Notes under the pieces: generated by a model | The model's input: only the letters and a program-made list of their open reading frames with translations | What the model was told of the DNA's origin: nothing | Database searches by the model: none | Position numbers and translations under genes: made by a program | Origin: Patescibacteria group bacterium | GTDB lineage: Bacteria > Patescibacteriota > Patescibacteriia > UM-FILTER-42-10 | Direction of reading: 5' to 3' | Length of the DNA: 64,000 bases | Assembly: GCA_041666485.1 (NCBI GenBank) | Contig: JBAYGW010000001.1 | Location: 15,299 to 79,298 of the forward strand | In this document: in pieces, positions 3,995 through 62,257 of the stretch | How positions within the stretch are numbered: the first letter of the stretch is position 1 | Layout: each line of letters opens with the position of its first letter

Positions 3995-4028
3995 AAAAAG
4001 GGGACCTAAATGGTCCCTTGTATTTTGA
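3995..4028. terminator. Bidirectional rho-independent terminator between convergent genes
   Basis: Hairpin GGGACC-TAAAT-GGTCCC (4001-4017) extended by A:T and G:U pairs. An A-run lies on the left and a T-run (ttgtatttt) on the right. It sits between the + strand peptidase stop (3958) and the - strand ORF stop (4075). Confidence 0.5.
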
Positions 4029-4074
4029 TATGTGTGGCGTCGTTTAATAAATCTTATAAGACGCCTAAATATAC

Positions 4075-4773
4075 CTATTTTAAATACGGGTCTGATAATG
4101 CCTTATATTTGGATATTTCTTTAACAAATGTATCAAAAGAAAGCAATTCAACATTTATGTTCTTATTTACTTTCAATGTTTTAGTTCTTTCTTCAATTAT
4201 GGAGTTGGATATTTCTTTATTTGAAACAACCAAATATATTTTGTATGGGAAATTCTTATAGGTATTAATCTTGTGAATTATATTATTAGTGAAATGACTT
4301 ATTTCAGTATCTGGAAAAAATACATCAACAGCATATTTGCCATTCTTGTGATAAACAATAAAGTCAACTTTTAATGTCGTATCATCTACTACAACCCGTG
4401 CCTGATTATGGACAAATGGTTCATGGTAATAATCATTAAGAACAACATATACTTCTTGTTCAGCATTGAATCCTCTATCCCATAGTATCTTTGATTTTCT
4501 GCTTCTAGTTGCACCTTTTGTATAATTCGTTTCAGTTAAACCAAGCTCTTTTCTAATGTTTGTTATTCCACCAAATTTCCTTTCCAGGGTTTTAACAGTA
4601 GGAAGATAAGTGCAGTTTTTCATATCTGATGCGACTGGCCATCTATTATTTTCTTTATAATATTGTCTGAAGCCAGATAAAATATTATCAATATTCCAGG
4701 ATACATGAAACTTATCATATCCATTTGGTATATTGATTAATCCATTTTCTTGTTTATAGTACTTTGGATGCAT
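4075..4773 (-). CDS. Hypothetical protein with homing-endonuclease-associated-repeat-like N-terminus and nuclease-like C-terminal half
   Basis: 232 aa. The N-terminal segment W-x3-I-x4-F-x-QYYKEN-RWP-x11-YLP-x5-LERKFGG-x5-RKELGL fits the HEAR-type motif of endonuclease-associated modules. The C-terminal half (EQEVYVVLND..VDFIVYHKNGKYAVDVFFPDTE) could be a PD-(D/E)xK-like core. The start is 3 nt from the ftsQ stop. The DNA is more AT-rich than the flanks. Confidence 0.5.
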   Translation of the reverse strand: MHPKYYKQENGLINIPNGYDKFHVSWNIDNILSGFRQYYKENNRWPVASDMKNCTYLPTVKTLERKFGGITNIRKELGLTETNYTKGATRSRKSKILWDRGFNAEQEVYVVLNDYYHEPFVHNQARVVVDDTTLKVDFIVYHKNGKYAVDVFFPDTEISHFTNNIIHKINTYKNFPYKIYLVVSNKEISNSIIEERTKTLKVNKNINVELLSFDTFVKEISKYKALSDPYLK

Positions 4774-4775
4774 AC

Positions 4776-5831
4776 CTATTCCATCACATAGACCTTTTCA
4801 CCGAATCTGAGATCAATATAATCTATATTCTCTCTTGCTGCCTGATCCGGCGCTTTTTTTTGTAAATATATTTTTAATCTTTCCAGCTGGGTTGCAATAT
4901 CATCATTTACGGTAAAATATGCTTTCCAGCCTTCAGTGGTTAAAACCGCTATATCTTGTACCGCCTTTACTAAATCACATTCAATTGAGCTATTGACGTT
5001 GCTATTGGCAGGATCAGACCTGTTTACATTCTGATTAGAACGATTGGTGTTAAGCGTGGCTTTGTTTATATTGCTATTAGACGAATTAATATTACTATTC
5101 AGGTCATCTGTATCATCTTTTTCCTCTTTTGTACTACAAGTTGTCTCCGGAATCAAAAACCTTTCAATCTCAACATTTGTTTTATCCTTGAAACGATCCT
5201 TGATAATAATTACCGCATTGACCAGTTCAGGTGATATGATTTGGTCCTTTAATTTGATTATTCGTTTATTCAGATCTTCAATTTTTGGAAAATACGCCCT
5301 CACTTCCGCTTCCGGTACTACATGTGTTACTACCCCCTGAAGATCCATATAATAAAACGCTCTTTCAGTTATGAGTGTCAGGTTGGGAATTTTTTCCTTA
5401 AGCCGGACGATTAATTTATTTGGAAATCTTTTTGTGATTGTAATCTCGTCCAGAACAAATGCGTCCCACAGTTTCTGCTGAGCCTCATCAACATCGTAAA
5501 TGAAAAAATTACTCTGTTTAAAAACCAGAAATCTATGCTCACTAAATGACTTATTAACTTCGTTGCTAATCGTTTCGTAAGTCAGCTCCTGATTGCCGGT
5601 AACATCAATAACCCTGATCGTAAAATAGGCTGAATAAAAAAAGAAATAGATTAATCCCCCGATGACAAGCAATAATGCTATTATCCTGGGTCGGGTTATG
5701 AGTCGCAAAACACTGACCTGCTGTTTCTTTTTTTTGAAATAAGGATTTTCATAAACCGGTTTGTTTACGACTTTGATTTCCCTTTTGCGGAAACCCCGGG
5801 CTCTTTTTAATTTCAGTCTATTACGGAACAT
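4776..5831 (-). CDS. ftsQ: Cell division protein FtsQ/DivIB (POTRA + beta domain) with internal N/S-rich low-complexity insert
   Basis: Basic N-terminus, a single TM (IIALLLVIGGLIYFFFYSAYF), and POTRA-like VIDVTGNQELTYETISNEV..FLVFKQSNFFIY. It lies immediately downstream of ddl, the canonical order. Confidence 0.75.
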   Translation of the reverse strand: MFRNRLKLKRARGFRKREIKVVNKPVYENPYFKKKKQQVSVLRLITRPRIIALLLVIGGLIYFFFYSAYFTIRVIDVTGNQELTYETISNEVNKSFSEHRFLVFKQSNFFIYDVDEAQQKLWDAFVLDEITITKRFPNKLIVRLKEKIPNLTLITERAFYYMDLQGVVTHVVPEAEVRAYFPKIEDLNKRIIKLKDQIISPELVNAVIIIKDRFKDKTNVEIERFLIPETTCSTKEEKDDTDDLNSNINSSNSNINKATLNTNRSNQNVNRSDPANSNVNSSIECDLVKAVQDIAVLTTEGWKAYFTVNDDIATQLERLKIYLQKKAPDQAARENIDYIDLRFGEKVYVME

Positions 5832-5833
5832 TA

Positions 5834-6976
5834 TTATTTGTTTTCTTTATACCAATCTTTTTTTGGTTTATAGGATGTTAACGATTGTCGGGAATCCTTA
5901 AACCTTTCCAGTGCCAGTTGAATCAGTTTATCAATCAGTTTCTGATACGAAATACCGGATGCTGCCCATAATTTGGGATACATGCTGATTGAGGTAAATC
6001 CGGGGATCGTATTCACTTCGTTTAAATAGATTTTTCCAGTTTTTTTATCAATCAGGAAATCAACCCGTGCCATACCGGCACAGTCCAGAGTTTGATAAGC
6101 CTTGATTGCCATTTTTTTAATACTATCCGCTGTCTTCTTGGAAAGTTTTGCAGGGATGATGGATCTGGATTTATCGTCAACATACTTGGCATCGTAATCG
6201 TAGAATTCATTACTGGGAATTATTTCACCCGGAACAGATGCTTGCGGGTCATTATTCCCTAATACGCTCACCTCTATTTCTCTCGGTTTTTTAAGACCCT
6301 GCTCAATCAATAGCTTTCTATCATACCGTGAGGCCTCTAAAATTGACGATACAAGGCCTTTTTGATCGTTTGCGAGCCCTATTCCCACAGAAGAGCCCAG
6401 ATTAGCAGGTTTTACAAATATCGGGTATTTGAGGGTTTTACGGATTGCTGAAATAAGCTTGTTTTGACTCGCTGCCCATTCTGTTCTAAGGAAACTGACA
6501 TACGGCAGAACCGGCAGTCCGGCCTGCATAAATAACTGCTTGGACACTACCTTGTCCATCGCAACTGATGATGCTAAAACGCCGGCGCCGACATACGGGA
6601 TATTTGCCAATTCCAACAGTCCCTGCAGTGTTCCATCCTCGCCGTACGGCCCGTGAATTATCGGGATGATAACATCCAATCCTAATACACTTTCCTTTGC
6701 ACCAGATTTAGACATCTGTACCAGTCCCTGTTTGGTGGAATCCGGAGTCACCATTTTTTCAAATTTAGGCAGAATTTTTTTTGTCCCGGCTTTTAGTGTT
6801 GCAAACGCAGTCGTGCCGGCGATCCATTTTCCGGCTTTAGTTATGCCTATCGGGATAATTTCGAATTTCTTTCGGTTAAGGGAGTTTATAATACTTTCAG
6901 CAGATACTATTGATACTTCATGTTCTCCGGATCTTCCGCCGAAGATCACCCCTACTCTAATTTTTCTCTGGCTCAT
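5834..6976 (-). CDS. ddl: D-alanine--D-alanine ligase
   Basis: N-terminus KIRVGVIFGGRSGEHEVSIVSA and an ATP-grasp C-terminus (LNEVNTIPGFTSISMYPKLW), consistent with Ddl. Confidence 0.9.
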   Translation of the reverse strand: MSQRKIRVGVIFGGRSGEHEVSIVSAESIINSLNRKKFEIIPIGITKAGKWIAGTTAFATLKAGTKKILPKFEKMVTPDSTKQGLVQMSKSGAKESVLGLDVIIPIIHGPYGEDGTLQGLLELANIPYVGAGVLASSVAMDKVVSKQLFMQAGLPVLPYVSFLRTEWAASQNKLISAIRKTLKYPIFVKPANLGSSVGIGLANDQKGLVSSILEASRYDRKLLIEQGLKKPREIEVSVLGNNDPQASVPGEIIPSNEFYDYDAKYVDDKSRSIIPAKLSKKTADSIKKMAIKAYQTLDCAGMARVDFLIDKKTGKIYLNEVNTIPGFTSISMYPKLWAASGISYQKLIDKLIQLALERFKDSRQSLTSYKPKKDWYKENK

Positions 6977-6994
6977 TTTAAGCGTCGTAAAATA

Positions 6995-8134
6995 TTAAAT
7001 GACTATTCTAGGAATTTGAGAATTTATCCTTGTAACGACCTCATAATTAATTGATTTGGTATCCGAAGCAATCTGGTCGGCAGTTATTTCCTGCTTGCCT
7101 TGTCGGCCAATTATCACAACTTCATCCCCTACCTCCGCTGAGTCCGCTGCAGATACATCAATGATGGTCAGATTCATACACACCTTGCCGATTACCGGGC
7201 ATTTTCTGCCACCAACTAGCACAATACCCTTATTGGAAAGCTGTCGGCTATAACCTTCATTATAACCGATCGGCAAAATCGCAATTACCGAATCCTTTTT
7301 TAATTTATATGAGCATCCGTAGCCGATCAGTGATCCTTTGGGCAGATGCTTAATTTGTATTATTTTAGTTTTCCAGGATAAAACCGGCTGTAACTCAAAA
7401 TCAGGAAATTTTTTATGCACCGTAATTTCATTATTTTCCGAAGGCCATAAACCGTAAACAGCTATACCCACGCGAACCATGTTGAAATGAGTATTGGCGG
7501 AGACAAGTGTTGCCGCACTACACGCGGCATGCGGTATGGAAATTTTTATCCCCATCCTTTGGAGCGAAAACAGCAAATTACGGAACTTTTCTATTTGTGA
7601 ATTTGTGAAAGTCCAGTCATTATTTTCCGAATCAGCAAAATGAGTAAAGACGCCGATGATTTTAATCATGTTCAATTTTGAACACTTTTCAATAAAATCA
7701 GTTGCCTCATCTGCCAGTATGCCGAGCCTAGATGTCCCTGTGTCAATTTTAATGTGAATTTTAGCAATAATATTCAAACTACCCGCTAATGCTGAAATTT
7801 CTTCTGCTGTTTCAAAGTCATAAACCACCAAATCAACATTCTGTTCAATTAGTTCTTTAATCTGCCCTTTTTCATAATAGCTCAAGACAAGGATTGGAGT
7901 ATTTAATGATTTACTCCTTAGCAGTAATGCCTCGGTTCCATTTACAACCCCTAAATAATCAACACCTGCTTCTGACAATATGTTAGCGACCTCAACAATG
8001 CCGTGTCCGTAGGCATTGCTTTTTATAATCGGCATCAATAGAACATTCGGTCCTGTCAGCTCTTTGAATTGGGCAAGATTGTGTTTAAGCGCTTGTGAAT
8101 CAATTTCTATCCATGTAAGATTTTCAGACATCAT
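6995..8134 (-). CDS. alr: Alanine racemase
   Basis: PLP-lysine motif PIIKSNAYGHG, with a TIM-barrel plus C-terminal beta domain. Confidence 0.9.
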   Translation of the reverse strand: MMSENLTWIEIDSQALKHNLAQFKELTGPNVLLMPIIKSNAYGHGIVEVANILSEAGVDYLGVVNGTEALLLRSKSLNTPILVLSYYEKGQIKELIEQNVDLVVYDFETAEEISALAGSLNIIAKIHIKIDTGTSRLGILADEATDFIEKCSKLNMIKIIGVFTHFADSENNDWTFTNSQIEKFRNLLFSLQRMGIKISIPHAACSAATLVSANTHFNMVRVGIAVYGLWPSENNEITVHKKFPDFELQPVLSWKTKIIQIKHLPKGSLIGYGCSYKLKKDSVIAILPIGYNEGYSRQLSNKGIVLVGGRKCPVIGKVCMNLTIIDVSAADSAEVGDEVVIIGRQGKQEITADQIASDTKSINYEVVTRINSQIPRIVI

Positions 8135-9388
8135 TTATTTTTGTTTTATTAATTCCAAACCGCCCAAATACGGCTGCAATTTCTCGGGTACCGCTACACT
8201 GCCGTCGGCCTGTTGGTTTTGCTCCAGAATTGCCGGAAATATTCTACTGGTAGCCAAGCCAGATGCATTCAGTGTGTGTACAAATATACTTTTAGCATCC
8301 TTACCTTTGTATCGGATATTTCCGCGTCGCGCCTGATAATCTAATGCATTGGAAATACTGGAAACTTCTTTATAGGTATTCATACTAGGAATCCAAACTT
8401 CAATATCAACCGTTTTAGCCATGGCGCTTGAAGTATCGCCCGCCGCCAGTTGTACAGTATTATAATGCAGGTTCAGACCCTCAACAAGTTCCTGCGCGTT
8501 TTTAACCAGCTCTTCAAACGACTGCCAGGAGTCTTCCGGTTTCGTGAGATGAAACATTTCAATTTTATTGAACTGATGGCCACGTATCATTCCACGCTCC
8601 TCTGTGCGATATGCGCCCGCCTCCTTTCTAAAGCATGTTGAAAAGGCAAAATACTTTAGCGGCAATTTACTGACATCCAAAACTTCGCCGGCATGGTAAT
8701 TACCCATCATCATTTCACTGGTTGCATTCAAGCAGAGTTTATCATCATCAGTCCAGTAGAGATCATCTTTAAATTTCGGCAGATGACCGGAAATATAAGC
8801 TGAGTTCTGATTTAAAAGGTACGGCGGAATCATGAATTGGTAATCAGGATGTGCTCTATGATAGTCTATAAAGTAATTTAATAGCGCCCATTCAAGTAAA
8901 GCGCCGGTACCGGTATACGCCCAAAACCCTGATCCGGACATTTTGGCTGACCGTTTGTAGTCTATCAGACCTAAATTAGTTGCGATTGCTACGTGGTCCT
9001 TCGGCTTGAAATCAAATTTCGGTTTTTCAGCGAAAGTGCCGATAATTTTATTATTTTCTTTTCCGCCCGCGACTACGTCTTCGGCGGGAATATTCGGAAG
9101 CGCGCCAATTAATGAATTATAGTCAGATTCTAACTGTTCAAGTTTTAAATCCAGCTGCTTGATTTCTAAACCGGTTACCTTCATCAGCTTTACCGTGTTC
9201 TGATCCGGTTTTGTTTTGGACGCCTTGTTTCTTTTGGCCTGCAGTTCCTCCTTTTTGGTCAAAATTGTCCGACGTTCCACATCAAGTTTAATAATTTTAT
9301 CTAAATCAAAATCTTTTTTCTCCAGACGTTTGAGCAAAGCTTTTTCAACTTCTTTTTTATTTTCAGTTATATATTTAATGTCCAGCAT
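8135..9388 (-). CDS. serS: Seryl-tRNA synthetase
   Basis: N-terminal coiled-coil arm (MLDIKYITENKKEVEKAL..) followed by a class II core (RTEERGMIRGHQFNKIEMF..). Confidence 0.9.
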   Translation of the reverse strand: MLDIKYITENKKEVEKALLKRLEKKDFDLDKIIKLDVERRTILTKKEELQAKRNKASKTKPDQNTVKLMKVTGLEIKQLDLKLEQLESDYNSLIGALPNIPAEDVVAGGKENNKIIGTFAEKPKFDFKPKDHVAIATNLGLIDYKRSAKMSGSGFWAYTGTGALLEWALLNYFIDYHRAHPDYQFMIPPYLLNQNSAYISGHLPKFKDDLYWTDDDKLCLNATSEMMMGNYHAGEVLDVSKLPLKYFAFSTCFRKEAGAYRTEERGMIRGHQFNKIEMFHLTKPEDSWQSFEELVKNAQELVEGLNLHYNTVQLAAGDTSSAMAKTVDIEVWIPSMNTYKEVSSISNALDYQARRGNIRYKGKDAKSIFVHTLNASGLATSRIFPAILEQNQQADGSVAVPEKLQPYLGGLELIKQK

Positions 9389-9392
9389 ATAT

Positions 9393-9977
9393 TTAAAGAT
9401 ACTTGATTATTTCTTCAATATTTTTTCTCCGGTTGTCAATTTGATAATACTCATCCTTGCTAAGATCCATTAAGTATTTTTTATACGTATCTTCAATGAA
9501 TAGCGCGCGATATGGAAATCCTGGTGGGAAGTATTTATGCGCTTTATCGGTAAGTTCGCCATGAATAGCATGGTGCACAGTGTGTATTTGATCCGGAGAT
9601 TTTACTAAACAGGTAACGGAAGTAAAATGCGCCGATCTTTGTTTTGGTGGAATATCCTGAATCTTTTCTTTTAATAATCTAAGCGCTTCTTCATCTGACA
9701 TGTGGTATCCTAACCAGCGCCTGGATTTTATACCCGGCTCGCCGTTAAGATAATCAATCTCCAGACCGGAATCTTCCGCAATGGTGGGGATTTTAGCAAT
9801 TTGATAATAATAGACAGCCTTGCCCTGCGCGTTTTCAGTAAATGTCTGTCCGTTCTCTTCAAATGAGTCTTTAATATTCATGCTTTCTAAAGTTTCCACA
9901 TCAATGCCAAAATCATTGAGCAACTTTGTATATGCTTCAATTTTTGCGGGATTACCTGTTGCGATTAGTACCTTCAT
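9393..9977 (-). CDS. rdgB: Non-canonical purine NTP pyrophosphatase (RdgB/Ham1 family)
   Basis: MKVLIATGNPAKIEAY.., FTENAQGKA, and a C-terminal Ham1 signature. Confidence 0.85.
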   Translation of the reverse strand: MKVLIATGNPAKIEAYTKLLNDFGIDVETLESMNIKDSFEENGQTFTENAQGKAVYYYQIAKIPTIAEDSGLEIDYLNGEPGIKSRRWLGYHMSDEEALRLLKEKIQDIPPKQRSAHFTSVTCLVKSPDQIHTVHHAIHGELTDKAHKYFPPGFPYRALFIEDTYKKYLMDLSKDEYYQIDNRRKNIEEIIKYL

Positions 9978-12005: not shown

Positions 12006-12074
12006 TGAAGTATTGTATTTAGTTAGATTAATTGTCCAAAGTATTATAACATTGTCCTACTGTTTTTTCAAATA

Positions 12075-45537: not shown

Positions 45538-46317
45538 CTATTTCTTTACCTCTGCTTTTTCTTTTTTTGTACCCTCTTCAGATTTTTCCGCATCGTTTTT
45601 TTCTTTCTCTTCCTTCTTTGACTCCTTTTTCTTATCGTATGACTTCAGGAAATCAAAGTGGTTTACCAAAATTTCCGAGGCACTCTTAAATACTTCAATC
45701 GGAGTCAGTGTTCCGTCTGTGACTATTTCAAGCGTAAGCTTATCATAGTTGGTCATTTTTCCAACACGGACATTTTCAATATCAAACCTCGCTTTGAGTA
45801 CCGGTGTGAATATGGCGTCAATTGCAATTACTCCAATTTCGTATTTTTCTTTACCACGGGCTTCAACTGGTGAATAACCAAGCCCATTCTCAACTGTCAA
45901 CTCCATATCCAGTTCTGCTGACTTATCTGTTAGCGTAGCAATTACTAGATCCTTGTTTGAAATTTTAACTTCCGCAGTTTCCTTAATATCTGCTGCTGTA
46001 ACCACCTTTTCACCCTTTACTTTTAGCGTGACCGTTCCAATATCTCCAGTAACCAACTTTAGGCGAAGCTGCTTTATATTTAGAATTATATCCACAACGT
46101 CCTCTTTGACGTGTTCAATCGTGGAAAACTCATGATCCACTCCCTTTATCTTTATGCCGGTAACTGCAGATCCGGACAGCGATGATATAAGCACTCTACG
46201 CAAAGCGTTGCCCACAGTCAGGCCATAGCCAGGATAAAGTGGTTCAACCACAATTATTCCTGTTTTATCATCTTTTTCTGTATATTTAATTTGTTGAGGA
46301 AGTTGGATCTCTGTCAT
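45538..46317 (-). CDS. rpoA: DNA-directed RNA polymerase alpha subunit (NTD only; the alpha-CTD is replaced by a K/E-rich tail)
   Basis: Alpha NTD motifs (VEPLYPGYGLTVGNALRRVLISSL..). The protein ends after about 225 aa of NTD with KKKESKKEEKEKNDAEKSEEGTKKEKAEVKK. Confidence 0.9.
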   Translation of the reverse strand: MTEIQLPQQIKYTEKDDKTGIIVVEPLYPGYGLTVGNALRRVLISSLSGSAVTGIKIKGVDHEFSTIEHVKEDVVDIILNIKQLRLKLVTGDIGTVTLKVKGEKVVTAADIKETAEVKISNKDLVIATLTDKSAELDMELTVENGLGYSPVEARGKEKYEIGVIAIDAIFTPVLKARFDIENVRVGKMTNYDKLTLEIVTDGTLTPIEVFKSASEILVNHFDFLKSYDKKKESKKEEKEKNDAEKSEEGTKKEKAEVKK

Positions 46318-51302: not shown

Positions 51303-51327
51303 AAACCCGCCTGCATGGCAAGCGGGT
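51301..51327 (-). terminator. Rho-independent terminator ending the three-gene sigma-r4/HARE - membrane protein - ATPase operon
   Basis: The minus strand reads CCCGCUUGCC-AUG-CAGGCGGG (9-bp stem with 1 mismatch) followed by UUUUUGG. Confidence 0.6.
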
Positions 51328-51341
51328 CGTTAAAGTTTGGT

Positions 51342-53084
51342 CTACTGATCAAATTTAATACTCTGGCCGGGTTTTATCACGTGCTCAGAAACTGGATGTT
51401 GCGGAACACTGTCATCCGGGCTTTTTAGTTCAATTTTCGGCAGAGGTTTATTATTATTATTATTCACTTGATTGGTATAGTTGCTCTTCTTTTTCTTCTT
51501 CTTTCTTCTGCCGCCGTCATGATGCGGATTTGGATTTGACGATGTATTTCTTTTTGTCACGTCACTAAAAGATATCGGGCCTTGCTGCAAAGCATCATTT
51601 AAACGTATCTCCTGCGGTGACTCATTAATTACTGGCTCTTTAATTTCACTCGGTGTTTCTACGGGCTGAGTTTTTGGTTCAATAATTTTCAAAACTGATT
51701 TTATCTTAGGTGCCTCGTTACTTTTTTCATGCTGGCTCTGCGCCGCTACGGTTTGTTTTGGACTTGCATTATCACTTTCATTTTCAGCAATACCTTTATA
51801 CATTTCTTCAACACCACTCCATCTTAGAATCTTATCTTCAACTACTTTTACCGGCCTGGCGTATCTTTCACGCGAAGAAACAATAATTTTGTCTAAATTA
51901 CCTGTCTCCCCCTGAATTGGCGGTAAAATTGTCGCGCTAAAAGGGGCGGATGCGACTCCGTCAATCATCAATTTCAAATATACATTGTACTTCGGCAGGT
52001 TTACCAGATCATTTAACATAAAATACGGCTCAAATTCCTTTTCCAAAAATTCAGCATCTTCAGCACCGACGCGGAAACAAATAATCGTTCCAACGTTTCC
52101 AAATACTGCCGCTTTCACCACGTCGCCAAGCTGTTCAATGTATTGATGAGCAATCGTAAGGTTTAGTCTGTATTTCCGCGCTTCTGAAAGTATATTTGCA
52201 AAGCTTTCCGTGGAGAAGTTCTGAAACTCATCAACATACAGATAAAAATCTTCTCTTGTTTCTTCTGGAATGTCCACACGACTCATTGCGGCCAATTGAA
52301 GTTTTGTAATCATCATAGCTCCAAGCAGTGCTGAATTTTCCTCCCCGATTCTACCCTTCGCCAGGTTCATTAAAAGAATTTTCTTTGTATCCATTATCAC
52401 CCTCATATCAATAGTACTCTTGGGCTGTCCGACAATATTTCTAATAATTGAGCTTGATAAAAATTGACCGACCTTATTTTGAATTGGTGATATTGCCTCT
52501 GTTCTGAAGCGCTCATTGTAATTTGCATATTCATCCACCCAGAATGCCTTAACAATCGGATCGGTCAGATTGGATACAATTTTTTTTCGGTAATTTTTAT
52601 CAACTAAAAGTCTGGTAATACCCAGTAAGGTACTGCCGGGATTTTCCAGCAAAGCAAGAATTGTATTCATTAAAATATATTCAAGCCTCGGCCCCCATGA
52701 ATCAGCCCATATTTTCTTAAAAACTCCTACCAGACCGGAAGCGATCAGATTTTTGTATTGCGGATTAACTTCTTCCAGTATATTAAAGGCGATGGGGTGT
52801 TCGGTATCGGAAGGATTAAAATACACGACATCATTTATTCTGTTGGATGGAATAAATTTAATCACCTTTTCCACTGATTCACCGTGCGGATCAACTAAAG
52901 CGACGCCCCGACCCCTGTGAATATCCGATATCACCATATTTTCAATACAATTGGATTTACCAACACCGGTTTTTCCAATTAAATAAACATGTCTTCTTCT
53001 ATCATCTTCTTTAATTCCAAACCTTACTCTCTTGTTACGAAAGTTAGTTTCGGCGAATACTGTTATATCGTTATAATCCGGCAT
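51342..53084 (-). CDS. TraD/TrwB/VirD4-like P-loop ATPase (coupling-protein family) lacking transmembrane segments
   Basis: Walker A HVYLIGKTGVGKSN, then VALVDPHGE (TrwB_AAD_bind-like pattern), then Walker B plus TraG-D_C-like FYLYVDEFQNFSTESFANILSEARKYRLNLTIAHQYIEQL. The C-terminal roughly 150 aa are low-complexity (RRKKKKKKSNYTNQVNNNNN). Confidence 0.7.
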   Translation of the reverse strand: MPDYNDITVFAETNFRNKRVRFGIKEDDRRRHVYLIGKTGVGKSNCIENMVISDIHRGRGVALVDPHGESVEKVIKFIPSNRINDVVYFNPSDTEHPIAFNILEEVNPQYKNLIASGLVGVFKKIWADSWGPRLEYILMNTILALLENPGSTLLGITRLLVDKNYRKKIVSNLTDPIVKAFWVDEYANYNERFRTEAISPIQNKVGQFLSSSIIRNIVGQPKSTIDMRVIMDTKKILLMNLAKGRIGEENSALLGAMMITKLQLAAMSRVDIPEETREDFYLYVDEFQNFSTESFANILSEARKYRLNLTIAHQYIEQLGDVVKAAVFGNVGTIICFRVGAEDAEFLEKEFEPYFMLNDLVNLPKYNVYLKLMIDGVASAPFSATILPPIQGETGNLDKIIVSSRERYARPVKVVEDKILRWSGVEEMYKGIAENESDNASPKQTVAAQSQHEKSNEAPKIKSVLKIIEPKTQPVETPSEIKEPVINESPQEIRLNDALQQGPISFSDVTKRNTSSNPNPHHDGGRRKKKKKKSNYTNQVNNNNNKPLPKIELKSPDDSVPQHPVSEHVIKPGQSIKFDQ

Positions 53085-54504
53085 TTGTTAAATCGTCATC
53101 ATTAATTATTTCTATAGGAAGATTTTCCGGTATCCCCGCTCTTGGAACGGCCGGCGCACCAGAGGCTGACCTACCTGGCCTTTGCGGAGATATTCCGGAA
53201 GATGAAAATGCTTCTCTTGGCAATGTTGCCGGCGCACCACCTTTGCGGACTTCCGTTCTCTGCACCGGCGGGACTGTGATAGTTGCGATCGGGAAATGAT
53301 AAATACTCGCCAACTCTTCAATATTTAAAATGAATCCTGTTCCCATGCCCAAGTGATTGGCGCGTTTTTTATATGCTCTCAGAATTTTTTTCTTCTTTAA
53401 TGCAACACGCTTTTCAACCCGCCAGTAATCCGCTTTTGTCTTTGTCCTTTTGTGCGGTTTAAACGCATTCAAATTAAGAGTGTTGTACTGAAACAAAGCG
53501 CCTAATACCGGGCTGATGCCTCTGTTTTTATCAAAGATTTCTTTTTTACCAACATAGACAAGCCTGATTTTAGTTCTAAATGCTATTTTGGTCATTTTTT
53601 CCTGTATCGCCTCAATAACACTCCTGGCTCCCGGGGTTAAAAATTGCATTTCACTCTTTGCTTTGGTATCTGCTTTGCTGGTATCAGTACTTGATGCCCC
53701 GCCAAGAACCTGATTAACCGCCTCGTCACCAAAACCCTTCAGAGTACTTGTCAACGGCGAAAAAACTCCTTTTTTCTGTGCTGATTTTTCTCCGGCTAAT
53801 TTTTTGACCAACTGTGAGGCATTTTCCGTCCAGGAAGAATTTGCGGGTGTTATGACAATTTGAAGCCACGTTTGTTCACCCGGTTGCAAACGGGATAAAG
53901 CTTCCAATATTGATGCCATCGGATCGGCAAATGTCTGACTTAAAGTATGTTCAAAATTCTTATAGGTACGTATAGGATATGCTTCTTTTTTTGCCAGTGT
54001 AAATTCGGTACCCCATAGATCATATTCATCATTTGGAAATTTATTTTCCACTGAATCCGTATAATCACCCACCTCCGTTATTTCCGCATCCGGGTATTGG
54101 GCATAAATCGCCGATTCAATCAAATCTCTGTTGCTTTTGTCTGACCTGATCAGATATTGAATATATCCGTCAATACTGACTAATTCAAGCGAATAGCGTC
54201 CCTGGACTTTGCCCAGCCAATAACGTTCGTATTTATTACCCTTTGCCTCAATTGCATATAGATGCGCAAATATCTGTTCAACCGCAACCAGCGACTGCTC
54301 ATTTTCTCTTGGTATATCCAGTGCCAATAAAACCGGTTCCTGTGCGTCCCTATATCTTTGCCTTGCGCGCTCCAACCTCGCAATATATAGGCCGATTATC
54401 AAAAGGACTACCAGGGCAATCCAGCCACCATTCACAAAAATCCACCATGCAGCGGCAAGCGGATTCTGTACACCCATAGATGTAAAATCTAAAGAGATTT
54501 CCAT
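53071..54504 (-). CDS. Membrane-anchored protein (single N-terminal TM) with a Pro/Gly/Ser/Arg-rich C-terminal tail. No family recognised.
   Basis: TM LAAAWWIFVNGGWIALVVLLIIGLYIA, then a roughly 350-aa globular region, then a basic low-complexity tail. Its end overlaps the start of the ATPase gene by 14 nt. Confidence 0.55.
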   Translation of the reverse strand: MEISLDFTSMGVQNPLAAAWWIFVNGGWIALVVLLIIGLYIARLERARQRYRDAQEPVLLALDIPRENEQSLVAVEQIFAHLYAIEAKGNKYERYWLGKVQGRYSLELVSIDGYIQYLIRSDKSNRDLIESAIYAQYPDAEITEVGDYTDSVENKFPNDEYDLWGTEFTLAKKEAYPIRTYKNFEHTLSQTFADPMASILEALSRLQPGEQTWLQIVITPANSSWTENASQLVKKLAGEKSAQKKGVFSPLTSTLKGFGDEAVNQVLGGASSTDTSKADTKAKSEMQFLTPGARSVIEAIQEKMTKIAFRTKIRLVYVGKKEIFDKNRGISPVLGALFQYNTLNLNAFKPHKRTKTKADYWRVEKRVALKKKKILRAYKKRANHLGMGTGFILNIEELASIYHFPIATITVPPVQRTEVRKGGAPATLPREAFSSSGISPQRPGRSASGAPAVPRAGIPENLPIEIINDDDLTNAGL

Positions 54505-54510
54505 TTTAAG

Positions 54511-55668
54511 CTACTGATTAGGGATTGTTTCAGATACTTCCTGTTTAAGCGCATTGTGATTTAAAGTATAGCGTTTATCCGGAAGTTTAGTAAATTTAGT
54601 TTTATCTGTCAGCGCCAAATGGATGGTGTTTTTTCTTACAACCCTCTGGTCCAACACTCTGCGTACTAGCTCATCCCTAGTCAGCGGCTCGCTGGCTTTT
54701 TCCAGTATCTTAATCAGAACATCAGAAACCACGCCCGGCTTGTATCCCCATTCCTCTAATGCATAAATCCCGCGTCCAACCAAAACAAAATCATTATTTA
54801 ATATAAGTTCATTATGCACAGTCGGAGGATATGCTTTACGGCGGTCAAACTTAACTTTATTGATCAGTTCGGTAATATCATTGAAATGCAAGGGCTTACC
54901 CTCCTTTTTCAAAACCAAGTATATCTTATCTTTCATCCGTTTCGGATTAATTGACCCCCATTTCGCTAAACCATACTCATCAAAAGGATTACTATCAATT
55001 TTTTTACTCAATGTAATGTAGGAGTGAATACCTTCATCCGTCAGTAATTCTTTTTTATTGGCGTAGTATTCCGTGTGATGGAATTTGTACAAAAGCTCAT
55101 CCAGTTTCATCGGCTTGCCTTCCTTTTCCAGGATCTGTACAAGCTGATCAATTGTTTCATTAACGAAATCCAAAGATACGTGAGGTAATCCCCAGGATTT
55201 TGATACAGATAGTGATGCCGGGATACGCACAATTTTCATGGAAATCAATTCCTCCAGGATAAACACCGCGCAATTATTATTTAACGGGTTATCGGACGCA
55301 AAATTAAGCAACTCATGCAACAGCGAATGTTCGTCCATGATTCCACCATTATGCCCCAAAACATTTGAAATAGTATGTTCCAATTCTGAGGACATTTTAC
55401 TGAATTCTCTCAACCCTTTTATTTTTTTGATTGCCGAATTCTCTATCTGCCGAATTCGCTCACGAGTCACATTATAAGCCTTACCGATCGCCTCCAGGGT
55501 CTCTTTTGCTTGCCCACTCAAGCCAAAACGACGCCTCAAAACATCCTCTTCCTTATTTGTCAGATATTTAAGTAATGAAGAGACTGTATCACTGGGACTA
55601 AATCCCTCTATTTCCGCCTCCTGTTTTGAACTTATTACCTTATCTAGAATTGAATTTTGGTCTGTCAT
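54511..55668 (-). CDS. DNA-binding protein: sigma-70 region 4 HTH followed by three HARE-HTH-like winged-helix repeats
   Basis: LTNKEEDVLRRRFGLSGQAKETLEAIGKAYNVTRERIRQIENSAIKKIK parallels sigma70 region 4.2 (VTRERIRQIE is identical). Three repeats then follow of the form x-LxKEGKP-[ML]-xxxE[LI]..-G..W (IDQLVQILEKEGKPMKLDEL..YGLAKWG; KDKIYLVLKKEGKPLHFNDI..GIYALEEWG; SDVLIKILEKASEPLTRDEL..), like the RNAP delta-subunit N-terminal HARE-HTH. Confidence 0.6.
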   Translation of the reverse strand: MTDQNSILDKVISSKQEAEIEGFSPSDTVSSLLKYLTNKEEDVLRRRFGLSGQAKETLEAIGKAYNVTRERIRQIENSAIKKIKGLREFSKMSSELEHTISNVLGHNGGIMDEHSLLHELLNFASDNPLNNNCAVFILEELISMKIVRIPASLSVSKSWGLPHVSLDFVNETIDQLVQILEKEGKPMKLDELLYKFHHTEYYANKKELLTDEGIHSYITLSKKIDSNPFDEYGLAKWGSINPKRMKDKIYLVLKKEGKPLHFNDITELINKVKFDRRKAYPPTVHNELILNNDFVLVGRGIYALEEWGYKPGVVSDVLIKILEKASEPLTRDELVRRVLDQRVVRKNTIHLALTDKTKFTKLPDKRYTLNHNALKQEVSETIPNQ

Positions 55669-55697: not shown

Positions 55698-55726
55698 AGT
55701 ATAGCATAAGCTTGAATAAGTGTCAA
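55698..55726 (-). promoter_or_regulatory. Sigma70-type promoter (TTGACA-17-TATACT) for the three-gene operon
   Basis: The minus strand reads TTGACActtattcaagcttatgcTATACT, about 30 nt upstream of the ATG at 55668. Confidence 0.45.
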
Positions 55727-58431: not shown

Positions 58432-59868
58432 CTAGTTACGAATAATAACCGGAATCCCCAAATTTGCCCATTGATAAACCCAGGCCGAATCGGTGCGGGA
58501 CATATTGATACACCCATGACTCATACGGTGACCGAAGTTATTATGCCAATATGTGCCATGGATCGTGTATGCCCCATAAAAAGACAGGACAAACGGAACA
58601 TCCTTGAGATCGTAGTTATCCGGATTATCCGGACCATAAAACCAGCTCATATCGGTTGATTCACGCTTCCAATATACATTATATTCACCGATAGGTGTGT
58701 CGTGTTTACCCTTGATTCCTGAGGAAATAAGAAATGAGTCAACCAATTTATCGTTTTCATAGGCGTATAATTTCTGTTCGGTAAGATTCACCTCAATGTA
58801 TTTGTAATAATCCGGCCTGTTCACTTCTTGCCATGCACTAGGCCCGGTTATAATGTCGTCTATTCCATCTCCAGTAATATCACCCACAGCAACGTTCACG
58901 CCACCTCTAAAATCTTTTTCGTAAGCAAAAAATGAATTCGCGACAAGGGTGCCATTAGCTTCAAACATCCTGATATGTGGACCACCTGCTCTCGTTGGAA
59001 CAGTTACCACCTCATCAAAACCGTCATTGTCAACATCGCCGGCAGCAACCCGGGTTCCACCCTGAAAATAATCAGGATATGAATAAAATTCTCCTAAGAT
59101 TGTCCTTTTGGCATCAAACTTATATACTTTTGTCCAGGTTTTACCGAATTTTTCCACTGCCATAACAATCTCTTCCTCGGGACCCCCATCAAAATTTCCA
59201 ACAGCCAGTGAGACCCCTCCGCGATCGCCTGAACGAAATGGAAGGAAATCAATTCCCTGAAAATCCCCCAGATAATTAAACACGCGAACATGCGCTCCGC
59301 CTGACGAACCGGGTGCTGCTACAATTTCATCCTTTCCGTCGCCATTAACATCACCGACTGCAACATTTACTCCACCACGCATGTCTTCGGCAAACGCAAA
59401 AAAACCTGGGGTAAATTTCGGATTGCCGTTAACATCAAATATACGGACATGTGGTCCACCGCCGGAACCTGAACCAGTTACTATTTCAATTTCTCCATCA
59501 CCGTTTAAATCACCGCATGCCACCGTAATACCGTTTCTAAAAGATTCCGCATAGGCCAAAAAACCGGTTACTTTAAATGAGTAGGGCCAGATTATTTTTA
59601 CATTCGGACCGCCGCCCGGTCCGGCACCGACGATAATTTCATTTTTACCGTTACCGTCCACATCACACGTTGCTACAGAAACACCCCCCTCAAAACTCTC
59701 GGGATAGACATTTAAACTTCTTCTAATATCTCCAGCAGAACTGAAAACCCGTATTTCGGGAGCGCGGGTTTTGGTATAAGCAAATGAAGTAAATGGTATT
59801 ACTACTAATATAGTTGCGGTAAATAGTATCTTCTTTAGCATACGTATATTGTAACAAAATATATGCAA
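58432..59868 (-). CDS. Secreted FG-GAP-like repeat beta-propeller fused to L,D-transpeptidase (YkuD) domain
   Basis: A signal peptide, then about six repeats F-AY-x-F-GG-[SN]VA-GD[VL][ND]GDG-x-[DE]EI[VI]-G-GGGP[HN]V[RK][IV]F. The C-terminus is HGTYWHNNFGHRMSHGCINM (catalytic His/Cys of YkuD). Confidence 0.75.
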   Translation of the reverse strand: MHIFCYNIRMLKKILFTATILVVIPFTSFAYTKTRAPEIRVFSSAGDIRRSLNVYPESFEGGVSVATCDVDGNGKNEIIVGAGPGGGPNVKIIWPYSFKVTGFLAYAESFRNGITVACGDLNGDGEIEIVTGSGSGGGPHVRIFDVNGNPKFTPGFFAFAEDMRGGVNVAVGDVNGDGKDEIVAAPGSSGGAHVRVFNYLGDFQGIDFLPFRSGDRGGVSLAVGNFDGGPEEEIVMAVEKFGKTWTKVYKFDAKRTILGEFYSYPDYFQGGTRVAAGDVDNDGFDEVVTVPTRAGGPHIRMFEANGTLVANSFFAYEKDFRGGVNVAVGDITGDGIDDIITGPSAWQEVNRPDYYKYIEVNLTEQKLYAYENDKLVDSFLISSGIKGKHDTPIGEYNVYWKRESTDMSWFYGPDNPDNYDLKDVPFVLSFYGAYTIHGTYWHNNFGHRMSHGCINMSRTDSAWVYQWANLGIPVIIRN

Positions 59869-59907: not shown

Positions 59908-61335
59908 CTAATCCTTTACAATCACCGTCGTTCCTACATCCGCCCAATTATACAACTTTTCAGCCGGACCAACGCCTAGTCGTACACAGCCATGTGAAAC
60001 TCTGACGCCGAGATGATTTTGTCCTTCTTTATAACCATTGGCCCACTCGGGTAATTCGTGCAGTCCATATCCACGTGAATCAAACTGCATCCAAAATGGC
60101 ATGTAAAGATTATAAGCACCTGAATATGCTTTTCTATTTTTATTCTGGATGTTAAACGTCCCAAGCGGTGTCGGCATTGACCACTTACCGGTTGAAACCT
60201 GAGCTGTATCAATCAAGTAACCGTTTTCATAATATTTCAGAATTTGATCAGAAATATCAACCTCAATATATTTTTTCAAGTCGGTTCGCCCTTCAGTAGA
60301 TCGTTTACTCGGTGCAACAATTATTTCGTCAATTGAATCATTATCAACATCGCCGGCAGCTAGCATTACACCGCCACGAAATTCTTCTTCAAACGCGAAA
60401 ATAGAATCCGGGTGAGCATAGCCATAAGCTTCAAAATAACGGACGTGTGGGCCACCGCCGGTATTGGCAGCGACAACAATCTCATCTAAACCATCCTGAT
60501 CAACATCCGCATTAGTAAGGTTGATACCTTTTTTGAATGTTTCCGGGAAAGCTCTGAACATACCAAGTACAGTTTTTTCCGGATTGGTTTTATAAACTTT
60601 CACCCAAGCTTCATCTGAAGACTGAACACCAAATATTAATTCTTCCTCCGCACCACCGTCCACATTTCCGCATGCAATACTAACCCCGCCATGATAGGTT
60701 GATGCAAATGGAAAATAATCTATTCCCATATAAGTTCCGTCTTTTTCAAAAACACGAACATGCGGTCCTCCACCAATTCCTGCACCCGTTACAATTTCCT
60801 TATCGCCGTCACCGTTTACGTCACACGTTGCAATATTAACCCCGCCCATAAAACTTTCCTGGTAGGCAAAAAATCCCAAGGTAAATTTTGGATTTCCTTT
60901 TCCATCAAAAACTCTTACATGAGGTGTCGCACCGAAACGCGTGCTCACAACAATTTCATCTTTCCCGTCACCGTCCAGATCACCTGATGCCACATTGACT
61001 CCTTTACTGTAATTTGTACCATAAGCAAAAAATCCAGAAATAAATATTCCTTCGGAATTAAATATTTTTATGTGTGGTCCGCCGCCGGGACCGGGAGCAA
61101 CTACAATTTCTTCTTTACCATCGCCGTTTACATCACCCGTAGCTACTGACGCTCCTCCTTTAAAACTTTCATCATAAGCGAGGAACGACTTTTCCTGAAC
61201 ATTTTTGTCCGATGAGAATATTCGGACGTCGGGTGCACGGTACTCCGTGGCAGATGCAATTTTCGGTAACAAAAAAACAGTACTAGCAAGCACTGCCAAC
61301 GTTAAAAATTTATTCTTTGGGTGTTGTATTTTCAT
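59908..61335 (-). CDS. Secreted FG-GAP-like repeat beta-propeller fused to L,D-transpeptidase (YkuD) domain, paralog 2
   Basis: Same architecture as the first paralog: repeats GDVNGDGKEEIVVAPGPGGGPHIKIF etc., and a C-terminus GLHELPEW..GVRVSHGCVRLG. Confidence 0.75.
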   Translation of the reverse strand: MKIQHPKNKFLTLAVLASTVFLLPKIASATEYRAPDVRIFSSDKNVQEKSFLAYDESFKGGASVATGDVNGDGKEEIVVAPGPGGGPHIKIFNSEGIFISGFFAYGTNYSKGVNVASGDLDGDGKDEIVVSTRFGATPHVRVFDGKGNPKFTLGFFAYQESFMGGVNIATCDVNGDGDKEIVTGAGIGGGPHVRVFEKDGTYMGIDYFPFASTYHGGVSIACGNVDGGAEEELIFGVQSSDEAWVKVYKTNPEKTVLGMFRAFPETFKKGINLTNADVDQDGLDEIVVAANTGGGPHVRYFEAYGYAHPDSIFAFEEEFRGGVMLAAGDVDNDSIDEIIVAPSKRSTEGRTDLKKYIEVDISDQILKYYENGYLIDTAQVSTGKWSMPTPLGTFNIQNKNRKAYSGAYNLYMPFWMQFDSRGYGLHELPEWANGYKEGQNHLGVRVSHGCVRLGVGPAEKLYNWADVGTTVIVKD

Positions 61336-61513
61336 TTTGTTTTTGTTTTGGCTATTTCAATCTATAGAAATAGGCCAGAGATGGCCCAATATTTTTCGAT
61401 TATTATTTCGAAATTATTTATTATTTTTGAGGTCATCTCTAGCCTCTGTTTTTGTTTTTTTGTTTGTTTTATAAAGAACTATACTACTATATTAGCACAT
61501 TTTTCACCTTCTG

Positions 61514-62257
61514 TCAACGCTTCTTTCCAATATACACACCATTAAATCCATCATTTGATTTTACCCGTCTCCCCTTTTTCATATAATATTTTTCTAATGT
61601 TTCAATGTTATTATTTTTTGCCAATTTTTCTATCTCGCCTAATCTGAATGCATGGCAATAACGATTGACAATAACTTCACCCTCCGGATTTTTCCACGCT
61701 TTTTCCGTGTCAAAAAAATCTAAAGCAGATCTTCCAATAATTTTATTTATCACATTTTTTAAAATCAAATTCCTTCTGCTTTTTTCCCACATATTCCAAT
61801 ATGTCATTATAAATATTCCGCCCGGCTTCAGCACTCTTGCTATTTCCTTAACAGACTGATTACGTAATTCATGTGACGGAATATGATATAAGCTTGCAAC
61901 TGCAAACACTATATCAAATGACTGATCAGCGAATGGTAATTCTGTTGCTGATGCTTTGAGAAAGCTATAGCTTGAAATTGAACTGGTTATTTTTTCATCA
62001 GCAATTTTTTTAGCAATTTGAACCAGTTTTTCAGAAACATCAATCCCGACATATTTAATTCCATATTTCACAAGAAAATTAAGAAACCTGCCATTTCCAC
62101 AGCCCACATCTAATACTGAAATCCCTGTTTGCAGGTACTTATCAAAATCATAAAATTCACTCCAATCTTTGTATCTTGTTTGGGAAAAATGATCGGCTAT
62201 GTTATCATAATCGGACGCTACTTTTTCTATTATCAAATTTGCTGTATTCTTATTCAT
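61514..62257 (-). CDS. Class I SAM-dependent methyltransferase
   Basis: Motif I VLDVGCGNGRF, post-I IDVSEKL, and motif II DIVFAVASLYH. The ORF track starts at TTG 62266; the ATG at 62257 is more likely. Confidence 0.8.
   Translation of the reverse strand: MNKNTANLIIEKVASDYDNIADHFSQTRYKDWSEFYDFDKYLQTGISVLDVGCGNGRFLNFLVKYGIKYVGIDVSEKLVQIAKKIADEKITSSISSYSFLKASATELPFADQSFDIVFAVASLYHIPSHELRNQSVKEIARVLKPGGIFIMTYWNMWEKSRRNLILKNVINKIIGRSALDFFDTEKAWKNPEGEVIVNRYCHAFRLGEIEKLAKNNNIETLEKYYMKKGRRVKSNDGFNGVYIGKKR

Follow-up and report, generated by a model that had tools for sequence, protein, structure and literature searches.

What could a protein do that begins with the promoter-reading region 4 of a sigma-70 factor, continues as an array of winged helices and has none of the other regions of a sigma factor? 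The question is raised by a gene at positions 54511-55668 (minus strand) of a 64,000-nucleotide stretch, called the window below, of contig JBAYGW010000001.1 from a Patescibacteria group bacterium (GCA_041666485.1). The location given in the original prediction, a note made from the letters of the window, was confirmed: the gene is a complete open reading frame (ORF) running from ATG to TAA, and its product of 385 aa consists of an N-terminal helix, sigma-70 region 4 (sigma-4) and four winged-helix modules. Judged by its sequence, this sigma-4/HARE protein is a non-sigma, multi-helix-turn-helix (HTH) protein predicted to bind DNA. Its gene is almost always the first of a triad, followed by a DUF8128 gene and by the gene of a TrwB/VirD4-type ATPase. 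We tentatively propose that the protein binds DNA and reads its sequence on behalf of a VirB4/VirD4-like motor split into these two genes, as an adaptor or an anchor and perhaps also as an autoregulator, a reading that falls a little short of being probable.

The sigma-70 region 4 that had been placed near the N-terminus was detected by Pfam at residues 33-84 (Sigma70_r4, E 1.3e-11, 44 bits against a cutoff of 24). When the protein was searched against the PDB with phmmer, the matches were fragments of sigma region 4 only (S. aureus SigA domain 4, E 7e-12). No region 2 or 3 was found: region 4 was the sole sigma region matched by Pfam, and the NCBIfam sigma models aligned only with their last 60-70 positions. 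Pfam, at E values up to 1, also revealed no alpha subunit C-terminal domain (alpha-CTD) or further extra domain in the protein. The domain occupies residues 25-86 (55411-55596, minus strand), with a net charge of +4.1 and a mean column identity of 0.74 in an alignment of 61 homologues. It is preceded by a conserved helix at residues 6-24 (55597-55653, minus strand; SILDKVISSKQ..EIE.F.P in the same alignment), in which S6, I7, L8, D9 and S14 are nearly invariant; F23 and P25 of this segment are invariant.

To determine whether region 4 retains the residues that contact the -35 element, the protein was aligned with RpoD sequences. The recognition helix VTRERIRQIE is identical in the sigma-4/HARE protein, in two Patescibacteria RpoD and in E. 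coli sigma-70, and region 4 as a whole is about 40% identical to the aligned RpoD C-terminal segments. R69, E70, R71, R73 and Q74, which we take to be the equivalents of R584, E585, R586, R588 and Q589 of E. coli sigma-70, are invariant among the 61 homologues, as are the counterparts of R562, L573, E574 and T583 in the same presumed numbering. In complexes of sigma-4 with the -35 element, the retained residues are the base contacts. All of the base contacts are thus kept, and from this retention together with the known complexes the domain is predicted to recognise TTGACA. The sigma-4 part of an AlphaFold2 model of the protein, described below, superposed on solved sigma-4 structures with a root-mean-square deviation of 1.1-1.8 A in Foldseek. 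The domain therefore shares with region 4 of RpoD/SigA its fold, its recognition helix and every -35 base-contact residue.

In contrast to RpoD/SigA, the protein is devoid of regions 1.2, 2 and 3, and so of core binding through region 2 and of -10 recognition, and its region 4 lies at the N-terminus with winged helices after it. The partial RpoD gene found at the end of one of the homologous loci (L058) was used as a query for Patescibacteria RpoD. All 120 Patescibacteria RpoD among the matches listed have regions 1.2, 2, 3 and 4 (PF04545), and the full sequences show a normal region 4. Since only region 4 is present in the sigma-4/HARE protein and complete RpoD exists in the same lineages, the protein is not a sigma factor, as the original prediction had argued from the missing regions. 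It offers a clear example of sigma region 4 serving outside a sigma factor. A split sigma factor, with region 4 supplied in trans, was ruled out because RpoD of the same lineages has every region.

The remainder of the protein had been described as three HARE-HTH repeats. The AlphaFold2 model, built on the 61 homologues (mean predicted local distance difference test (pLDDT) 83, predicted TM-score 0.65), shows the N-terminal helix at residues 7-21, sigma-4 at 25-85 and four winged helices, A (87-160), B (166-234), C (245-304) and D (314-369), each composed of three helices and a beta-hairpin, with block-mean pLDDT of about 71-94. The winged-helix, HARE-type nature of the repeats is thus upheld; their number had to be corrected to four, and module C alone passes the Pfam cutoff. 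Over the whole protein, HARE-HTH (PF05066) scored 47.7 bits against a threshold of 25.9 (E 2.1e-12) in two stretches, of which the best was at residues 245-307. Tested as single modules, C reached 28.5 bits against the same threshold, B and D gave below-threshold matches to the first half of the HARE-HTH model (E 0.006 and 0.09), and A gave no Pfam match. The profiles of the modules were compared with each other by hhalign, with probabilities of 94.6% for B-D, 74.5% for B-C, 51% for A-D and 36% for A-B.

The four modules differ in charge and conservation. Module A (residues 87-162; 55183-55410, minus strand) is variable and slightly acidic (net charge -1.4, column identity 0.51), and module B (163-240; 54949-55182, minus strand), which is HARE-HTH-like below the threshold, is acidic and equally variable (-4.2, 0.51). 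Module C (241-310; 54739-54948, minus strand), a bona fide HARE-HTH, is the most conserved and the most basic of all (+6.5, 0.83); its helix 3 (PTVHNELILN) and its GRGIYAL.EWGY hairpin are nearly all invariant. The HARE-HTH-like module D (311-372; 54553-54738, minus strand) is likewise basic (+3.9, 0.70), with R342, V344, N347 and T348 invariant and K345 and K346 nearly so. This contrast between the basic, conserved sigma-4, C and D and the acidic, variable A and B points to three nucleic-acid-facing modules, separated by A and B.

The original prediction had also noticed a VirD4-like ATPase downstream. That gene is present (51342-53084, minus strand) and is not directly adjacent, because a DUF8128 gene that had gone unmentioned (53071-54504, minus strand) lies between the two. 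It starts 6 nt after the sigma-4/HARE gene and overlaps the ATPase gene by 14 nt. The three-gene unit is preceded by a near-consensus extended -10 promoter at 55698-55726 (minus strand), with TTGACA, a 17-nt spacer and TGcTATACT (11/12 matches plus the TG), and is closed at 51304-51328 (minus strand) by an intrinsic-terminator-like hairpin with an 11-bp stem (7 GC pairs) and a T run. An upstream promoter of the form TTGnnn-N14/15-TGnTAnnnT was seen in 72 of 79 loci, mostly with TTGAC[A/T/G] and a 17-nt spacer. Because its own promoter holds a conserved TTGACA, the sigma-4/HARE protein may autoregulate the operon.

Two further observations were made on promoters. Near-consensus extended -10 promoters (TTGACA-17-TGnTATAAT, at least 10/12 matches) occur in the window at 12043-12071, 55698-55726 and 61489-61517; the 64 kb contain no others, and all three are on the minus strand, which points to long operons driven by a small number of strong promoters. 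In about 20 of the 72 promoter-bearing loci (within L003-L077; e.g., L049, L032, L071 and L035) the -35 TTGAC is the 3' arm of an inverted repeat or hairpin whose other arm, a GTCAA, lies up to 45 nt upstream; by a rough estimate about 3 would be expected by chance. Such a repeat, of which the window has none, could represent an operator or else a terminator of the upstream gene that runs into the promoter.

How general is this arrangement? When one genome per GTDB species was scanned, at least 583 loci had homologues of the sigma-4/HARE protein, and all homologues examined were from Patescibacteria. The best 120 are 356-405 aa long, and the Pfam pair Sigma70_r4 and HARE-HTH recurs in nearly all of them. 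The titles of the loci include Kerfeldbacteria, Buchananbacteria, Komeilibacteria, Nomurabacteria, Andersenbacteria and Kuenenbacteria, one Microgenomatus and two Saccharibacteria. The C-terminal 294 residues alone retrieved 455 clusters (50% identity level) at E <1e-30 and 1,338 at E <1e-3. Co-occurrence was judged from loci of up to 20 kb: among 80 GTDB loci, with identities as low as 37-40%, the order sigma-4/HARE, DUF8128, ATPase was found in 78, and in the two others the contig ends just past the sigma-4/HARE gene. secDF usually lies upstream, and the triad is kept even where the flanks are different (L057, L058, L062, L065, L075, L077, L079, L084 and L085). It is also found with the divergent members P0230, P0253 and P0265, which match only in the C-terminal half. 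The functional tie that had been drawn to the VirD4-like ATPase is supported by this near-universal conservation of the operon.

The two partners were then characterized. DUF8128 (477 aa) was modelled with AlphaFold2 (pLDDT 79) as one long N-terminal transmembrane (TM) helix (residues 15-54) followed by an alpha/beta domain. Its best PDB matches were TrwK/VirB4 of R388, with a probability of 1.0 and an E of 3e-4, yet with TM-scores of about 0.3. The ATPase (580 aa) is a P-loop protein matched by TrwB_AAD_bind, DUF87, T4SS-DNA_transf and TraG-D_C; this half is nearest to TrwB/VirD4 by sequence (Pfam and PDB) and is without a TM segment of its own. A tblastn search against plasmids recovered two Bacillota megaplasmids on which a single ORF joins a DUF8128-like region to the N-terminus of the ATPase, at 5941-9600 of locus L172 (Priestia megaterium pFDU301A) and at 5983-9975 of locus L171 (a Pontibacillus sp. 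megaplasmid); BLASTP matches to the window proteins had E 2e-14 and 1e-23. This fusion suggests a single unit of which DUF8128 and the ATPase are the halves and whose architecture, as far as sequences and models indicate, is VirB4-like.

The long, disordered tail of the ATPase (51342-51850, minus strand) carries IRLNDALQQGPISF and the C-terminal peptide IKPGQSIKFDQ. Among loci L001-L084, an ISLxEAL-like motif was present in 46 of 74 tails, a zinc-finger-like CxxC...CxxC in 42 of 74 and, at the extreme C-terminus, a peptide resembling [IL]KPGQV[IV]KF in 48 of 74. These conserved motifs look like partner-docking peptides. The C-terminal peptide in particular is reminiscent of the tails by which coupling proteins dock their partners, such as the tail of TraD that docks TraM.

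In both Bacillota records the ATPase frame is interrupted, and about 1-1.4 kb separates its Walker B region from its C-terminal part; an intein, an intron or decay of the gene may be responsible. The neighbours of the fusion genes include genes of VirB2-like, CheW-like and TadZ-like proteins as well as small sigma-like factors. These small sigma-like proteins were considered as specific relatives of the sigma-4/HARE protein and rejected, the sole BLASTP match being weak (E 0.003) and outside region 4.

Sigma region 4, HARE-HTH and the TrwB/VirD4- and VirB4-like ATPases are already known, and the architecture of the protein already has pipeline labels: NCBI names it 'sigma factor-like helix-turn-helix DNA-binding protein', and the Joint Genome Institute (JGI) calls one homologue 'RNAP delta subunit'. 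A literature search yielded no paper that deals with what the family does or with the operon that ties it to DUF8128 and the ATPase. The domain combination and its operon link are both uncharacterised. VirD4-like genes of Patescibacteria were surveyed in 2025, with 5,713 of them in 2,918 genomes, almost none close to a type IV secretion system and only 148 near virB4, and their role was left open (PMC12102498).

The domain anatomy, the conservation of the DNA-contact residues, the operon, the conserved triad and the split or fused state of DUF8128 and the ATPase are what the computational analysis established; from them we infer a DNA specificity, a contact with the motor and a process served. 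DUF8128 and the ATPase would form one membrane-anchored, VirB4/VirD4-like hexameric motor. The sigma-4 domain would read a -35-like TTGACA hexamer in double-stranded DNA, the basic, near-invariant modules C and D would add nucleic-acid contacts, and the acidic, variable modules A and B may be a spacer or a surface for protein contacts. In this manner the protein could bring specific DNA to the motor or anchor it there, in a process of DNA transfer, uptake, anchoring or segregation. The earlier suggestion of an adaptor rather than a transcription factor is plausible.

Such a division of labour has precedents. TraD, a coupling ATPase, receives its DNA from accessory proteins of the TraM type, and the gamma winged helix of FtsK guides its motor. 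As in the TraM-TraD pair of F and the TrwA-TrwB pair of R388, a predicted sequence-specific DNA-binding protein is encoded beside a TrwB/VirD4-type ATPase whose tail is long and disordered and closes with a short conserved peptide. However, the sigma-4/HARE protein is made of HTH and winged-helix folds, not of the ribbon-helix-helix of TraM and TrwA; the triad is chromosomal and core-like in a phylum-level clade, with no relaxase, oriT or mating channel linked; and its ATPase, unlike TraD and TrwB, lacks its own TM segment and has a VirB4-NTD-like (N-terminal domain) partner instead. FtsK, with its gamma domain and FtsK-orienting polar sequences (KOPS), and Streptomyces TraB, with its clt repeats, likewise combine a motor of the FtsK/HerA superfamily with winged-helix readers, as a functional analogy only: the reader of the triad is a separate polypeptide with five HTH-type modules, and its motor belongs to the TrwB/VirD4 branch.

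Several observations weigh against this proposal. The contact between the sigma-4/HARE protein and the motor is deduced from genomic context. Tandem winged-helix arrays are often protein scaffolds and not DNA binders, and the top fold matches of the whole chain in Foldseek were the tandem winged-helix proteins UFL1/DDRGK1, Dcc1, SelB and Egalitarian. The order of secDF, mnmA and alaS is also kept in many loci, so that part of the triad linkage is general synteny. No relaxase, oriT-like repeat or channel gene was found with the triad among the Pfam-annotated neighbours of the inspected loci. With 34 occurrences in the window where 42 would be expected, TTGACA shows no enrichment, and it is not clustered either; a TTGACA-based loading site in the window was rejected accordingly. 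In Southlakia, the homologue of the type IV coupling protein (T4CP) is reported to be non-essential (PMC12102498); the main text of that paper, consulted for transposon sequencing (Tn-seq) information, does not mention the sigma-4/HARE gene. Finally, one outlier, P0255, has no DUF8128/ATPase pair downstream and sits among sigma-factor genes; the family is evidently not confined to the triad and can be found in a context linked to transcription or to the origin.

P0255 (locus L167, 2540-4198) is a GC-rich member of 552 aa in which the sigma-4/HARE core is followed by a C-terminal DnaA domain IV (Bac_DnaA_C, E 1.2e-22). Its gene lies between a sigma-factor gene and an extracytoplasmic-function (ECF)-like sigma gene and adjoins parB. 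As DnaA domain IV is a second sequence-specific DNA-binding module, its presence supports sequence-specific DNA binding as the core activity of the family.

If the sigma-4/HARE protein does serve the split motor, an orphan VirD4-like ATPase becomes, at least for the homologues examined, one member of a three-part system. It would be the ATPase half of a VirB4-like unit divided between two genes, ahead of which lies the gene of a predicted DNA-binding protein equipped with the promoter-reading domain of the housekeeping sigma factor, and its conserved tail peptides would suit the docking of a partner. Patescibacteria account for much of the diversity of bacteria, and no function is known for the majority of the conserved genes specific to their lineages. 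The proposal would give a first functional lead for this orphan motor and predicts TTGACA binding, an interaction of the protein with the motor and autoregulation. A broader view, which we consider unlikely, is that the triad is a chromosomal DNA-handling machine, core to much of Patescibacteria, that tethers or translocates chromosomal DNA at the membrane independently of conjugation. Here the free sigma-4 would direct the split motor to DNA with a promoter-like TTGACA, or to RNA polymerase (RNAP) located on it, and the handling of chromosomal DNA would serve segregation, DNA exchange or uptake. If true, a DNA motor would here, for the first time, be seen to use the promoter-reading domain of a sigma factor as its targeting module.

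Could the protein instead act on promoters alone? A free sigma-4 may compete with region 4 of RpoD for the TTGACA of -35 elements, that of its own promoter first, so that the protein would be a promoter-occluding factor or autoregulator, its winged helices adding affinity or oligomerisation and the ATPase genes being regulated cargo. The recognition helix identical to that of RpoD fits this explanation, as does the place of the gene, first in the operon and right behind a TTGACA-17-TGnTATAnT promoter in the 72 of 79 loci, one of only three such promoters in the 64 kb. The GTCAA repeats close to the -35 in about 20 of 72 loci and the setting of P0255 among sigma-factor genes point in the same direction. 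However, a protein of 385 aa with four modules, two of them near-invariant, goes far beyond the needs of a repressor; the GTCAA repeats are variably spaced, often terminator-like and absent in the window; a strong consensus promoter would be found in front of any highly expressed operon; and the constant linkage to the motor genes is left unexplained. We regard promoter occlusion as a serious but doubtful alternative to the partner of the motor.

A role as a general accessory subunit of RNAP is quite unlikely. Sigma-4 would sit on the beta-flap tip and a delta-like HARE-HTH on beta-prime, the operon linkage would be incidental, and the protein might compensate for the loss of the alpha-CTD. 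Both domain types are known RNAP-binding modules, a homologue has the JGI delta label, and the family is better conserved than its neighbours (mean column identity 55% against 44%). The original prediction had likened the repeats to those of the RNAP delta subunit (RpoE of Bacillota), and module C is indeed a HARE-HTH with a G..W hairpin like that of delta. The delta model TIGR04567, which was the best HARE-containing NCBIfam match of the protein, aligned with module C at residues 244-307. Its score of 36.1 bits is nevertheless below the cutoff of 42, and a profile of modules C and D searched against the PDB found no delta chain and nothing significant (best match CadC, E 0.21); the likeness to delta needs correction on these points. 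The protein also has four modules where delta has one, and the acidic C-terminal tail of delta is absent, the two C-terminal modules being positively charged (see above). The survival of the triad through changes of its flanks is not expected from incidental synteny.

The alpha subunit deserves separate mention. The rpoA genes of the window and of locus L084 lack the alpha-CTD, which would agree with a compensating accessory subunit, but the loss is patchy (about 33 of 75 RpoA) and its co-occurrence with the family amounts to these two cases only. RpoA of the window (45538-46317, minus strand) has 259 aa, an N-terminal domain and a Lys/Glu-rich tail, and the NCBIfam rpoA models match it only over positions 2-251 of 320; rpoA of L084 lies at 4017-4928. 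Among 75 complete metagenomic RpoA relatives (loci L087-L166), the approximately 33 proteins without alpha-CTD have 233-296 aa and charged tails, several of which end in an AT-hook-like KKRGRPKK, and about 42 keep the normal helix-hairpin-helix domain (307-329 aa). A literature search on alpha-CTD loss in the Candidate Phyla Radiation (CPR) found no paper describing such RpoA. Bacterial HARE-HTH proteins with features of sigma factors and of RNAP alpha were reportedly noted by Aravind and Iyer (2012, Cell Cycle 11:119) and may or may not include the present family. In comparison with such proteins, the sigma-4/HARE protein has no detectable alpha-CTD.

Export of the protein by the coupling-type ATPase, for instance into a host as a decoy for the -35 element or the beta-flap, is very improbable. 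Its gene does lie beside that of a T4CP-type ATPase, the presumed targets are universal in bacteria, which could explain the high conservation, and the cultivated Patescibacteria are epibionts with conjugation-type type IV secretion systems (PMC12102498). Against this, the conservation is housekeeping-like and not that of typical effectors, no secretion signal was identified in the protein, and only 148 of 5,713 T4CP homologues lie near virB4 (PMC12102498). The recognition of modified or foreign DNA through the HARE-HTH modules, as in restriction or epigenetic systems and as the original prediction had suggested, is hardly credible: the Pfam match to HARE-HTH is real and fusions of HARE-HTH to restriction nucleases are documented (PMC12839542), but no methyltransferase, restriction nuclease or defence gene accompanies the triad in any inspected locus, and the family is core-like and chromosomal where defence genes are patchy. 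Membership in a defence system was rejected, since PADLOC gave only generic hits, sigma-4 (MzaA) for the sigma-4/HARE protein and a HerA/mad8-type P-loop for the ATPase.

Farther upstream in the window, two tandem paralogues of 478 and 475 aa are encoded on the minus strand (58432-59868 and 59908-61335). They are secreted proteins with FG-GAP/beta-propeller repeats fused to a YkuD-type L,D-transpeptidase domain, and homologues of these genes are kept upstream of secDF in many related loci.

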